Shown piece by piece: positions 9,508-12,359 of a stretch of 12,834 nucleotides of DNA. Origin of the DNA: a virus (taxonomy: Duplodnaviria > Heunggongvirae > Uroviricota > Caudoviricetes); IMG/VR virus record IMGVR_UViG_638341084_000023; one strand, 5' to 3'. Below the pieces are notes generated by a model that saw only the letters and a program-made list of their open reading frames with translations, made no database searches and was not told the origin of the DNA. The position numbers were made by a program, and so were the translations under genes. Numbering within the stretch: the stretch's first letter is position 1; every line of letters begins with the position of its first letter.

Positions 9508-9704
9508 GCGAGAAACCCGACGATTTACTCACCCCGGATGAAGTATGCCAAAAGTTAGGTATTACACAGAAAACGCTATGTGAGTGGAATATTAAGCATC
9601 GTCATCGGGCTATCCTGGCACCAATTCGTTTCAGTGCAAAAGTAGTTCGTTATGAGCGCCGAAATATCGACGCTTTTATTCAAAAATGTCGCAGCCAGTA
9701 TTAA
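9504..9704 (+). CDS. excisionase / AlpA-like helix-turn-helix DNA-binding protein
   Basis: 66 aa, LLTPDEVCQKLGITQKTLCEW then VRYERRNIDAFI, resembling the Xis/AlpA/TorI winged-helix family. Start overlaps the helicase stop (ATGA). Convergent with the integrase and overlapping its 3' end by 4 bp. Confidence 0.65.
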   Translation: MSEKPDDLLTPDEVCQKLGITQKTLCEWNIKHRHRAILAPIRFSAKVVRYERRNIDAFIQKCRSQY

Positions 9705-9956
9705 CCTCGCCGCCGTAGCAATGCCACCTGCGCAAGTATGCTCCGCTCGTGAGCCTCGAAAGCTTCGCGCTTCAACGCAATCTCTTCCTGTAAAATCTCA
9801 TCAGAAAAGTCGTAATGTTCTGCCATCGGGTCATCTGACTTGCTGGAGTGGTGAAGGCAAAGGAGGCTGATTTCCCTTCGGTCTGAGCGGGAATAGCCTC
9901 TTTCCTTCATCAAGGCAATAACATTGCTCTTAAGGAATTTACGGCACATCGTATTA
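9701..9956 (-). pseudogene. tyrosine integrase, 3' (C-terminal) fragment separated from the 5' part by IS3
   Basis: Joining the minus-strand sequence at 11221 to that at 9956 across one copy of the AAT duplication keeps the frame (...KGKDGAF|NTMCRKF...). The fragment contains LHH and AEHY, candidates for the conserved His and catalytic Tyr. Confidence 0.6.
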
Positions 9957-9959
9957 AAT
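9957..9959. repeat. IS3 target-site duplication AAT (left copy; right copy at 11218-11220)
   Basis: AAT immediately flanks both IS3 termini (9957-9959 and 11218-11220). IS3-family elements make 3-bp duplications. Confidence 0.8.
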
Positions 9960-9989
9960 TGATCCTACCCACGTAATATGGACACAGGC

Positions 9990-10856
9990 CTAAGCGAGGT
10001 TCTGGTTTTCAAATTGTTCCGGACTGAGGCCGCCACACCAACTGTGCCGCCGCCACCGATTGTAATCACATTCGATATAATTAAACACCGTTGCCCGCAT
10101 TATTTCCCGGCTGATAAAGTGTTCTCCATGGATACATTCCACTTTCAGCGAATGAAAGAAGCTTTCCACGCAGGCATTATCGTAGCAGCAACCTTTTGCG
10201 CTCATACTTCCACGCAGATTATGCCGCTTCAGTTGCGCCTGATAATCTGCTGAACAGTACTGGCCTCCACGGTCCGTGTGAACGATAACGTTCCGGGGCC
10301 TCTTACGCCGCCACAGCGCCATCTGCAGGGCATCGCAGGCCAGTTGCGCCGTCATGCGTGGCGACATTGACCAGCCAATAACGGCACGTGACCACAGGTC
10401 AATGACCACTGCCAGATACAGCCAGCCTTCATCTGTACGTAAGTACGTGATGTCTCCTGCCCACTTCTGGTTCGGGCCACTGGCGTAAAAATCCTGCTCC
10501 AACAGATTTTCTGACACAGGCAGGCCGTGTGCGCGGTAGCTGACCGGGCTGAACTTCCGGGAGGCCTTTGCCCTCAGTCCCTGACGGCGCAGGCTTGCCG
10601 CCACGGTTTTTACGTTAAAGGGGTAACCCTGAGCACGCAGTTCATCCGTCAGGCGTGGGGCACCGTAACGCTGTTTTGACCGGGTAAAAGCCGCGAGGAC
10701 AACGCTGTCGCAGTGTTGGCGGAACTGCTGACGCGTGCTTATCCTTGTCCGCCGCTGACACCACGTATACCAGCCGCTGCGGGCCACCCGGAGCACGCGG
10801 CACATTGCTTTGATGCTGAACTCAGCCTGATGTTTTTCAATAAAGACATACTTCAT
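9990..10856 (-). CDS. insF: IS3 orfB (DDE transposase catalytic subunit InsF)
   Basis: 288 aa with integrase-core DDE region (WAGDITYL ... VHTDRGGQY ... ESFFHSLK). Start overlaps the orfA stop in the -1 frame, as expected for programmed frameshifting to an OrfAB fusion. Confidence 0.9.
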
Positions 10857-11152
10857 TTCAGGCGCTTCGCGAAGTATGTCGCGGCCTTTTGGAGGATAGC
10901 CAGCTCTTCATCCCGTTCTGCCAGCTGGCGTTTGAGACGTGCAATCTCGGTAGACATCTCCAGTTCACGTTCAGAAGACGTCTGCTGATTTTGCTGTTTA
11001 CTGCGCCAGTTGTAGAGCTGTGATTCATACAGGCTGAGTTCACGGGCTGCGGCAGTAACACCGATGCGTTCAGCAAGCTTCAGGGCTTCACTGCGAAATT
11101 CAGGCGAATGCTGTTTACGGGGTTTTTTACTGGTTGATACTGTTTTTGTCAT
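10853..11152 (-). CDS. insE: IS3 orfA (helix-turn-helix transposase subunit InsE)
   Basis: [40 protein letters not shown]... with a leucine-zipper-like C-terminus. 99 aa from the ATG at 11152; the supplied ORF track begins 3 codons earlier at a GTG. Confidence 0.9.
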
Positions 11153-11198
11153 GTGAGTCACCTCTGACTGAGAGTTTACTCACTTAGCCGCGTGTCCA

Positions 11199-12359
11199 CT
11201 ATTGCTGGGTAAGATCAAATGCACCGTCTTTCCCTTTAACAGTCCCATCATGTTTTATTCCTTTTACAGCCCCGTCCGGGCTGTATGTTTTCACCAGCTT
11301 ATCCAGTGATCGTTTTGAAAATGGCTGCATTGGATCACGTGGCTGCAAAAATACATAATCCCTGTTGCACTCAGGAACTGAATCACGCCAGGCTTTCTGC
11401 TCGTCGATAATCCGCCGGATCTCAGGGGTTATCGGCAGGCGGAAAGCCTTTTGTGTTTTCATAGCCCCTCGCATGCCGATAACCCCTTCCGGATAAACAA
11501 TTTCACCAGCCTCCTCGTGAACGTAGTCCCAGCGCAGGTTATGGACATTAATCGGACGAACACCAGTGATGATCATGAAGCGAACAGCATTCTTCTGGTG
11601 TACAGAGGTGCAGGCAGCAACATTGAGCCAGAGTCGGGCGATTGATTCAATATCGGTAAAAAGCCGTGTGGGGGTAGGTTTCTGTACGCGGGAGGAAACA
11701 TAATCATCTGGCAGACTGGCGGCAACATTGCGGCCGTTGCAAAGAGTAGGTGCGCAGAACTTCCAGAACCGACGGAGCTCGGCAAACAACTCCAGGGCGT
11801 TATTGTTCGAGCGAGTAGCGATCCACTCGTCCAGCACTTCCACCAGCCGATTGTATGTTACGTCGCTGAACACCTCGCGCTCGCCGAACGTTGCTTTAAT
11901 CCGGTCGATACGCACCCCGTAGGTTGTGAAACTGTCCGGGCTCAGCTTCTGCCGGGCGACTTTGGCTTTGAGGTCATCCCGGTACATTTCCAGCGCTGCA
12001 TGTACGGACTCTGCCCGCAGGCCACCGTCAGCCATACCTAGCGCTTTTTCGCGCGCCAGCTGGATAGCGAGCTCCGGCCACTCGCCGAGCTTTTTACCTT
12101 TGAGGCCCATCTTTTTTGGAAACTCGGCGTAAAATGTAACCTTACCGGCTTTGCTGAAATCGATACGGAGATAGTTCTCTTTTTCGTATTTGGAACGGCG
12201 AGCCACGCCGGAAGCAGCGAGGATGATTTTGGCGGCAGCAACACAGATTTTCATGTGTGCGCTAGTATAGGGGGGTTTACAGGCGTCCCATTTTTCAGAA
12301 GCGGCTAAAACATCGTCATTATTGGGGCTATCCGGATTATGTGTTACAGTGCGCGGCAT
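11199..12359 (-). pseudogene. tyrosine integrase (phage integrase family, P4-like architecture), 5' part, truncated by IS3
   Basis: Arm-binding-like N-terminal region (YLRIDFSKAGKVTFYAEF...GEWPELAIQLAREKA). Catalytic-domain motifs ITGVRPINVHNLRWDYV (first Arg) and MKTQKAFRLPITPEIRRII (hairpin Lys). Native sequence ends at 11218; the last residues and the stop at 11199-11201 come from the IS3 terminal repeat. Likely true start is the ATG at 12359 (AAGGA 6 nt upstream); the ORF track starts at a TTG at 12365. Confidence 0.8.

Follow-up and report, generated by a model that had tools for sequence, protein, structure and literature searches.

The integrase gene (int) of a prophage in the EPEC B171 lineage of Escherichia coli is interrupted by a copy of IS3, and this insertion has very probably inactivated the integrase and fixed the prophage in the chromosome. 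The window, as we call the whole 12,834-nucleotide stretch of DNA that was analyzed, shows complete identity to AAJX02000030.1, a draft contig of EPEC B171. It includes the right-hand 12.6 kb of a prophage of ~44 kb whose integration site is the 5′ end of yfhL. In the course of events that we propose, IS3 would have transposed into int of this temperate prophage, duplicating 3 bp (AAT) of the target. Translation of int would then run five codons into the IS3 end and stop, creating a 386-aa protein that would keep the DNA-binding parts, R268, and K301, but without R386, H417, and Y429. Such a product would be unable to cleave and rejoin DNA, and Int-dependent attL/attR excision and re-integration would therefore be lost, leaving the prophage locked in the chromosome unless a matching integrase were supplied in trans. 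The features that bear on this reading are collected in Table 1.

Table 1. Features of the interrupted integrase locus and its surroundings, in window coordinates.
Feature	Position	Strand	Remarks
Small HTH_17 DNA-binding protein, putative excisionase/recombination directionality factor	9504..9704	plus	
Integrase C-terminal fragment, codons 381-465 and stop codon	9701..9956	minus	
Target-site duplication copy 1, AAT	9957..9959		Flush with IS3 end
Complete IS3 insertion sequence	9960..11217	minus	1258 bp; transposase genes in same orientation as int
IS3 right inverted repeat (orfB-distal)	9960..9998	minus	~39 bp imperfect repeat, agrees with other end
IS3 orfB, InsF-like DDE transposase domain, 288 aa, intact	9990..10856	minus	transpos_IS3, E 3e-101
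IS3 orfA, InsE-like, 99 aa, intact	10853..11152	minus	
A-AAA-G slippery motif	10886..10890	minus	In orfA/orfB overlap region
IS3 left inverted repeat (orfA-proximal)	11179..11217	minus	From comparison of both ends
Target-site duplication copy 2, AAT	11218..11220		Flush with IS3 end
Integrase N-terminal fragment, codons 1-380	11221..12359	minus	PF00589 at aa 246-359
Phage-supplied replacement start and first 10 codons of yfhL	12574..12603	plus	K-12 counterpart MALLITKKCI
attR core AATTGTGATATGTGTGAA, 18 bp, inside yfhL	12604..12621		Common to both prophage junctions and the K-12 empty site

The inserted element runs from TGATCC... at 9960 to ...AGATCA at 11217, and its terminal inverted repeats (TGATC...GATCA, of the 5′-TG...CA-3′ type) are intact, the two ends being alike over ~39 bp. 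The two transposase genes, orfA and orfB, join via an ATGA overlap, with both frames open and orfB in the -1 frame. The A-AAA-G motif in IS3 is reportedly, after Sekine and Ohtsubo, the site of a programmed -1 frameshift that makes the OrfAB transposase. Against the NCBIfam model NF033516 (transpos_IS3), the transposase scores 339.2 bits for a cut-off of 160, and rve domains are on record for the same product. The closest point of comparison is K-12 IS3A (insE1/insF1), the type element of the IS3 family, to which the window copy is 99.84% identical, with two internal substitutions over 1255 aligned bases, one of which we take to change OrfB from ...ENKNLA in K-12 to ...ENQNLA in the window. 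Both copies have the 1258-bp architecture, the TG...CA repeats, the ATGA overlap, the A-AAA-G motif, and a 3-bp target duplication, whereas K-12 IS3A lacks the terminal TGA at its left end and the window copy has both ends in full. Length (within the ~1.2-1.5 kb typical of the family), repeats, the ORF pair with its slippery motif, the DDE profile, the 3-bp duplication, and the near identity to IS3A together place the element in the IS3 group of the IS3 family, and judging by its sequence it is apparently full-length and transposition-competent.

Where int meets IS3, the junction reads GGCACATCGTATTAAAT / TGATCCTACCCACG. Deleting 9960-11220 in silico leaves a single 465-aa minus-strand frame, in which the ORF start at 12359 is joined to the stop at 9701-9703 and the protein across the restored junction reads ...KGKDG/AFNTMCRKF. 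The 465-codon gene is broken between codons 380 and 381, five codons upstream of the putative second catalytic Arg. In-frame restoration adds little alone, since taking out any genuine IS together with one duplication copy brings back the original frame; the proof of insertion is an existing empty site. Such a site does exist: the restored 1660-nt stretch occurs ungapped and in one piece in 160 of 5426 complete E. coli genomes. In four of these it is 100.0% identical, so that the empty site carries a single AAT, and the uninterrupted allele is annotated as one 465-aa tyrosine recombinase (WP_001138334.1). Because the exact empty site survives at 100% identity, the insertion event can be reconstructed base by base. 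The preliminary description of this DNA, made from the sequence alone, had proposed a complete IS3 with these termini and AAT on both sides, whose removal with one AAT rejoins two ORFs in frame as the halves of one tyrosine recombinase gene, and it had called for an uninterrupted allele to be sought in related strains. The repeats, the ORFs, and the identity to K-12 IS3A bear out the first point and the 465-aa ORF the second, while the joined gene and full-length homologues confirm the single origin of the two halves.

The carrier genomes also bear on whether the prophage could still be mobile, either through a second integrase of the same specificity acting in trans or through precise excision of IS3 restoring int. 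In favor of this, no damage is seen in the att core, the xis-like gene, or the replication genes, but genomes with int have exactly one copy (one place per genome as both median and maximum), and IS3 would be expected to excise precisely across a 3-bp repeat only very rarely; we consider continued mobility highly unlikely.

The same junction recurs in independent data, so the insertion is not peculiar to one assembly. A predicted protein matching the 386-aa truncated product exactly occurs on AAJX02000030.1, GCA_002466105.1, and several SRA assemblies, and the independent assemblies with the IS3/int junction comprise a second one from NCBI together with at least six SRA runs. One of these, a 2400-bp contig, is 100% identical across the whole of IS3 and the integrase N-terminal fragment, and short-read contigs break inside IS3 at the same int junction. 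An assembly artefact, in which a repeat was collapsed or wrongly placed in int when the draft was put together, might be suspected because the apparent source, AAJX02000030.1, is a draft assembly and IS3 is multi-copy in E. coli, occurring in 4123 of the 5426 complete genomes. However, the 3-bp duplication is perfect and flush with both inverted repeats, and since the same junction recurs in other assemblies, including the contig that spans the entire element, we regard an artefact as extremely improbable. The junction was found in none of the 5426 complete E. coli genomes, a left-junction scan of one genome per species gave no match, and a literature search returned nothing linking B171, IS3, the integrase, and the prophage.

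Read through the insertion, the truncated int ORF (11199..12365) enters the IS3 left inverted repeat and reaches a stop codon at 11199-11201, so that its translation of 386 aa ends in ...DGAFDLTQQ inside the IS. The N-terminal fragment comprises N-terminal helices, an arm-binding-like beta/alpha unit (strands at residues 54-94 of the structural model described below), the core-binding domain, and the first half of the catalytic domain with R268 and K301. The invariant T383-x-C385-R386, H417, and Y429 lie in the C-terminal fragment, ahead of a long C-terminal helix. This division agrees with the preliminary description, which had placed the arm-binding and first catalytic motifs in the former and a His/Tyr-containing tail in the latter, although it had left unmentioned that the putative second catalytic Arg, R386, also lies in the tail. 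Because R386, H417, and Y429 are cut off, the truncated product, which retains R268 and K301, should be catalytically dead, and the severing of these three residues supports the earlier claim that the element has lost its integrase.

Homologues of the restored protein number 92, mostly 463-467 aa long and spanning both fragments, and are distributed across Enterobacterales and beyond (Serratia, Yersinia, Xenorhabdus, Klebsiella, Morganella, Vibrionales, and others), with full-length homologues down to 32% identity aligning through both parts. R268, K301, T383, C385, R386, H417, and Y429 are invariant among 33 homologues, and R268, K301, R386, H417, and Y429 stand in the expected order. Matches of the restored protein to PF00589 (30.4 bits, cut-off 27.1, residues 246-359 only) and to PHROG_1 ‘integrase’ (E 1.5e-26) both end at about residue 359. 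An AlphaFold (AF2) model of P0001, a homologue 96% identical to the restored protein, has a pLDDT of 85.8 and adopts the recombinase fold with core-binding and catalytic domains. In a Foldseek comparison of this model with the PDB, the best match is lambda Int (E 7e-8, TM up to 0.72), further matches include XerA/XerH, Tn1549 Int, IntI, and Cre, and 31 of the top 50 have E values of 0.001 or lower. An origin of the two fragments in different genes, joined in frame by chance, is raised by the Pfam match covering the N-terminal fragment only and is otherwise just an a priori possibility; it has practically no probability left, as 160 genomes carry the joined sequence as one gene, homologues to 32% identity extend over both parts and have invariant residues to either side of the junction, and the model folds as one recombinase. 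The uninterrupted allele and the full-length homologues with their invariant residues refute it.

PDB chain sequence searches with the restored integrase, whether as a single sequence, a full-length profile, or a catalytic-domain profile, returned no recombinase, and hhalign of the integrase profile against lambda Int covered only the core-binding region and box I (probability 16%, E 0.0015), with a second run covering box I alone and R268 aligned with the lambda box I Arg at low probability. Because the hhalign alignments extend to box I only and the PDB searches were empty, the C-terminal catalytic residues are not mapped by sequence; their invariance, order, and spacing, together with the overall fold match, lead us to infer that R386, H417, and Y429 are catalytic, with Y429 as the presumed nucleophile. 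At the His II position, three residues before Arg II, most tyrosine recombinases have His, whereas this integrase has the invariant Thr383. The same position in lambda Int is occupied by His308. Lambda Int (PDB 1z1b, 1z1g, 5j0n), together with other heteromeric-site tyrosine integrases, and the window integrase have in common a three-part fold (arm-binding-like, core-binding, and catalytic), a box I Arg in a TG-x-R context, a gene adjoining att, and a small HTH partner gene. In contrast, the two are only ~14% identical, with the window protein lacking a sequence-level PDB match, being 465 aa rather than 356 aa long, and carrying additional helices at the N terminus, an insertion ahead of box II, and a long helix at the C terminus, while its xis-like gene converges on int instead of lying upstream of it as in lambda. 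Among deposited phage genomes, only that of Serratia phage vB_SspS_OS31 (MT843276.1) encodes an integrase of this type; the protein is 76.5% identical over its full length, although the host genus differs. As an observation in its own right, these proteins appear to form a divergent, strongly conserved, and uncharacterized clade of ~465 aa, with an invariant T-x-C-R in place of the H-x-x-R of other tyrosine recombinases and extra N- and C-terminal helices.

The int start lies 245 bp from the attR core, so that the gene adjoins the attachment site. The core was found by comparing the K-12 empty site, the left junction in strain FDAARGOS_1059, and the window; a direct repeat search between the two prophage ends gave only chance matches of 9-10 bp. 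The K-12-type 5′ end of yfhL (attB) reads ...AATGCATCAATTGTGATATGTGTGAACCCG, and the phage brings a near-identical new start with 10 codons, by which yfhL stays whole. Phage 21 and e14 integrate in icd and bring along a substitute for the end of the gene that they displace. The prophage at yfhL likewise inserts inside a gene and rebuilds the displaced end, but it replaces the 5′ end, and hence the promoter too, whereas phage 21 and e14 replace the 3′ end of icd. Promoter and terminator consensus scans over 9600-12700 stayed at chance level. Insertion of prophages at yfhL is on record (PMC3603311, PMC10675304).

On the other side of int, the small HTH gene closes the replication operon, and the stop codons of this gene and of int overlap tail-to-tail. 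Its product scores 26.0 bits against HTH_17, for a cut-off of 27, and reaches E 0.012 with TIGR01764 ‘excise’; PHROG 4745 ‘DNA binding protein’ matches at E 7e-27 and excisionase PHROGs at only 1e-5, and RefSeq annotates it as a ‘helix-turn-helix transcriptional regulator’. On such matches an excisionase is only a plausible label. The preliminary description had spoken of an intact excisionase gene, of which the intactness stands, the gene being identical to that of a relative, while the sub-threshold HTH_17 score and weak excisionase PHROG matches leave the name unestablished. Its statement that the replication genes are intact holds as well, and their ORFs do not differ from the ones in a relative whose int is uninterrupted. 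A TIR-domain candidate defense gene lies inside the replication module.

Relatives of the prophage show what the loss of the integrase may mean. Leaving aside IS3 and one AAT, positions 1-9959 of the window agree with FDAARGOS_1059 at 100.000% identity, nor is there a real difference to the right. The FDAARGOS_1059 prophage has an intact int, yet it carries three frameshifted genes (DUF2213, a baseplate-region gene, and an invertase) and ISCro1, an IS66-family insertion, in a tail-fibre assembly gene. Other relatives have IS66-family insertions in a gene for an ssDNA-binding protein, a truncated Q, a truncated repressor, or a shortened int. It is thus quite conceivable, at slightly worse than even chances, that the prophage was defective before IS3 came and that the insertion was a neutral hit in a decaying element. 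Given the three frameshifts and the IS66-family insertion present in its nearest relative, the IS3 hit may be one lesion among several rather than the immobilizing event. The preliminary description had gone further and called the element an immobilised cryptic prophage, which the window, whose 12.6 kb of prophage DNA leave the structural and lysis modules outside, does not establish. Against this, all window ORFs other than int are intact, save a small pseudogene common to relatives; the structural half of the IS3-bearing prophage falls outside the window, the B171 contig ending at about window position 1. Earlier decay is in any case compatible with inactivation of the integrase by IS3, and would change only the meaning of that loss.

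Inactivation of int by IS3 has parallels among the IS-disrupted integrases of defective E. coli prophages, for instance intQ and intR, which are int pseudogenes of K-12 cryptic prophages (PMC3603311). In these prophages, as would be the case here, an inactivated recombinase gene leaves the prophage fixed, which is ordinary prophage decay. The window lesion differs from intQ and intR in being a single, clean, recent IS3 insertion with an exact empty site at 100% identity in other strains. A further-reaching reading, which we consider unlikely, is that IS3 locked an otherwise replication-competent B171-lineage prophage into the chromosome and, separately, that the integrase belongs to an uncharacterized conserved clade that targets and rebuilds the 5′ end of yfhL. 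If the prophage were locked in this way, induction would result in in situ replication, which could amplify or package the neighboring host genes yfhL-acpS-pdxJ-recO-era-rnc, as in lateral transduction; alternatively, the prophage could be kept as a fixed carrier of the TIR-domain candidate defense gene.

The IS3 insertion in int is real, but it represents an ordinary kind of prophage decay and carries little weight beyond annotation. The two int ORFs and IS3 are best annotated as one IS3-interrupted integrase pseudogene, and the yfhL prophage of the B171 lineage is best regarded as no longer able to excise through its own integrase. The side observations, namely the divergent integrase clade, integration at the 5′ end of yfhL with gene repair, and the TIR candidate, may be more useful. 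The IS3/int junction provides a convenient clonal marker for the B171 lineage. Other strains still have the empty site at 100% identity, which makes the case a clean textbook illustration of how an IS fixes a prophage in place.

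The tyrosine integrase gene (int) carried by the window was split by IS3, as is shown decisively by the existence of an empty site. When the element and one AAT copy are deleted in silico, the two fragments rejoin as a single 465-codon open reading frame on the minus strand, which starts at 12359 and has its stop at 9703-9701, with the break between codons 380 and 381 (...KGKDGA/FNTMCRKF). The preliminary description had anticipated this rejoining and had placed the IS3 and its AAT copies correctly, as borne out by reading 9500-12834 and by script. Taken alone, in-frame rejoining is a weak test, since the frame would come back on removal of any genuine insertion. 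An uninterrupted allele was sought in related strains and found: 160 of 5426 complete E. coli genomes contain the restored 1660-nt sequence without a gap; it is 100.0% identical in four genomes and is given as a single gene for a tyrosine-type recombinase in all annotations. In E. coli FDAARGOS_1059, the nearest relative, the product is WP_001138334.1 (465 aa). Outside the IS, the window is 100.000% identical to this strain over the 9959 left-hand bases, with no real difference to the right, and the insertion is therefore recent, IS3 plus AAT being the sole change.

By its sequence, the 1258-bp element is a complete IS3, beginning TGATCCTACCC and ending GGGTAAGATCA, with imperfect inverted repeats of ~39 bp as termini. 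OrfB scores 339 bits against the NCBI IS3-family transposase model (cut-off 160). Two internal substitutions separate this copy from IS3A of K-12 (NC_000913.3 315229-316483), which is annotated as 1255 bp and lacks the terminal TGA of its left inverted repeat; the window copy, in contrast, has the TGA and the full length, and looks competent for transposition.

Features of the window discussed in the text
Feature	Position	Strand	Remark
IS3 element	9960-11217		1258 bp
AAT target duplication	9957-9959 and 11218-11220		two copies, flush with both element ends
IS3 orfA	11152-10853	minus	99 aa, open reading frame
IS3 orfB	10856-9990	minus	288 aa, open; ATGA overlap with orfA
AAAAG slippery motif of IS3	10890-10886	minus	
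attR core AATTGTGATATGTGTGAA	12604-12621		18 bp, inside yfhL; K-12 empty-site comparison
HTH_17 gene	9504-9704		
TIR-domain gene	5762-6523	plus	253 aa
Opposite-strand ORF	2958-3587	minus	209 aa
Opposite-strand ORF	7252-8049	minus	265 aa

An assembly artefact is very unlikely, since the identical junction recurs in several assemblies and the whole IS is spanned by one 2400-bp contig. The exact 386-aa product of the interrupted gene is found in NCBI assembly GCA_000167895.4 (contig AAJX02000030.1), AAJX00000000 being the draft assembly for B171, the prototype strain of EPEC (PMC4464170). Window positions 5199-12834 match this contig at 100% identity, including the IS and both junctions, and the coordinates imply that the window start roughly coincides with the contig end. 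Product and junction also occur in GCA_002466105.1 and several SRA assemblies, whose short-read contigs are interrupted within the IS at one and the same position. The junction was absent from the 5426 complete E. coli genomes and from the species-representative genomes. Judged from these matches, the insertion is characteristic of a lineage and not of one clone alone.

That both fragments belong to one tyrosine recombinase, as first proposed from the sequence, is supported by homologues, invariant residues and fold. A protein search with restored int returned 92 homologues, most of 463-467 aa and spanning both fragments, from Serratia, Yersinia, Xenorhabdus, Photorhabdus, Providencia, Morganella, Klebsiella, Pantoea, Edwardsiella and Vibrionales, as well as more distant gammaproteobacteria (lowest identity 32%). 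Alignments of 22 and 33 sequences place invariant residues both upstream of the junction (R268 in TGVRPIN, K301 in MKTQ) and downstream of it (T383, C385, R386, H417, Y429). Restored int passes Pfam Phage_integrase (30.4 bits vs 27.1) over residues 246-359 only, and the PHROG_1 'integrase' match (E 1.5e-26) stops at residue 358. An AlphaFold2 model built on a 96%-identical homologue is confident (mean pLDDT 85.8); its best solved-structure match is lambda integrase (E 7e-8; TM-score up to 0.72 on lambda Int 75-356), followed by XerA/XerH, the Tn1549 integrase, an integron integrase and Cre. Four short strands and a helix (residues 54-113) occupy the place of the lambda Int arm-binding domain, with which a weak Arm-DNA-bind_3 match (E 0.075) agrees. 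The predicted fold thus matches lambda Int while sequence-only comparison with solved structures found no recombinase match; in a profile comparison, lambda Int could be aligned through the core-binding region and box I only, with R268 opposite the lambda box I arginine. Because sequence-level comparison reached only box I, we infer from invariance, order, spacing and global fold that R386 is Arg II, H417 is His III and Y429 is the nucleophile. Tyrosine recombinases usually carry H-x-x-R, with the His three residues before Arg II, whereas T-x-C-R is invariant across this clade (residues 383-386; window 9941-9952, minus strand).

Translation from 12359 now proceeds through 380 native codons, adds FDLTQQ and ends at a stop inside the IS end (11199-11201). 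The product retains R268, K301 and, as predicted, the DNA-binding parts, and lacks R386, H417 and Y429. Downstream of the IS, an internal Met opens an 82-aa ORF that matches no family by itself. A tyrosine recombinase that has lost its tyrosine cannot cleave DNA, and the absence of the three residues indicates that integrase function has probably been lost, in line with the preliminary description.

In FDAARGOS_1059, a ~44-kb prophage lies between yfhH and yfhL with int as its last gene, and carries a contractile-tail structural module, a lysis cassette, a Q antiterminator, a LexA-family repressor and a VapE primase. The replication module it shares with the window comprises a DUF2800 nuclease, an Enc34-type ssDNA-binding protein, a family A DNA polymerase, VRR-NUC and an SNF2 helicase; all replication ORFs of the window are intact, as had been claimed. 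Comparison with the K-12 empty site places integration inside the yfhL 5′ end, where the phage supplies a new start and the first ten codons (window 12574-12621 region) in place of those for MALLITKKCI in K-12, so yfhL stays whole. Phage DNA (intergenic 12360-12573, which also holds the int promoter region) displaces the native yfhL promoter. yfhL is already on record as a prophage target (PMC3603311; PMC10675304).

Other genes of the window were also noted. The HTH_17 protein, a putative excisionase, falls just under the Pfam threshold and its excisionase matches are weak. Its gene is convergent to int, with stop codons overlapping at 9701-9704 (TTAA region), and its start overlaps the SNF2 helicase stop (ATGA, 9504-9507); it is therefore predicted to be expressed with the replication genes and not with int. 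Inside the replication module, a TIR-domain protein matches Pfam CAP12-PCTIR_TIR (E 3e-31) and, over its full length, the PADLOC candidate defence family PDC-S35 (E 7e-109), and is possibly a prophage-borne anti-phage gene product. Two opposite-strand ORFs, hydrophobic by eye, sit in sharp GC troughs (0.32-0.36 vs ~0.50) within the replication operon and look like moron-type insertions; no Pfam or PADLOC family matches either one, and the longer has a weak TfpB match on record. In FDAARGOS_1059, RefSeq lists an 'ANR family transcriptional regulator' as a frameshifted pseudogene (L001 11088-11266; window ~6587-6765), and, the sequence being identical there, the window carries the same small pseudogene.

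The FDAARGOS_1059 prophage has an intact int, yet three of its genes are already frameshifted and ISCro1 has inserted into it. The ISCro1 site in relatives is a tail-fibre assembly gene; other lesions include insertion of IS66-family elements into the gene for the ssDNA-binding protein, frameshifts, and truncation of Q and of the repressor gene, with independent lesions in L002 (NZ_CP066032.1 2596000-2645000) and L014 (ADUO01000178.1). Such lesions show a prophage family that is decaying repeatedly, in many E. coli strains. That the prophage is 'cryptic', as the window was first read, is unproven. Serratia phage vB_SspS_OS31 is the sole deposited phage with this integrase type (76.5% identity to restored int), and the clade, a side issue here, appears uncharacterised. 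IS3 and temperate-phage tyrosine integrases are both known kinds, and prophages are well known to become fixed when an IS disrupts their integrase. The IS3-split integrase is thus confirmed but an ordinary finding, and in B171 the IS3 may be the immobilising event or one lesion among several.
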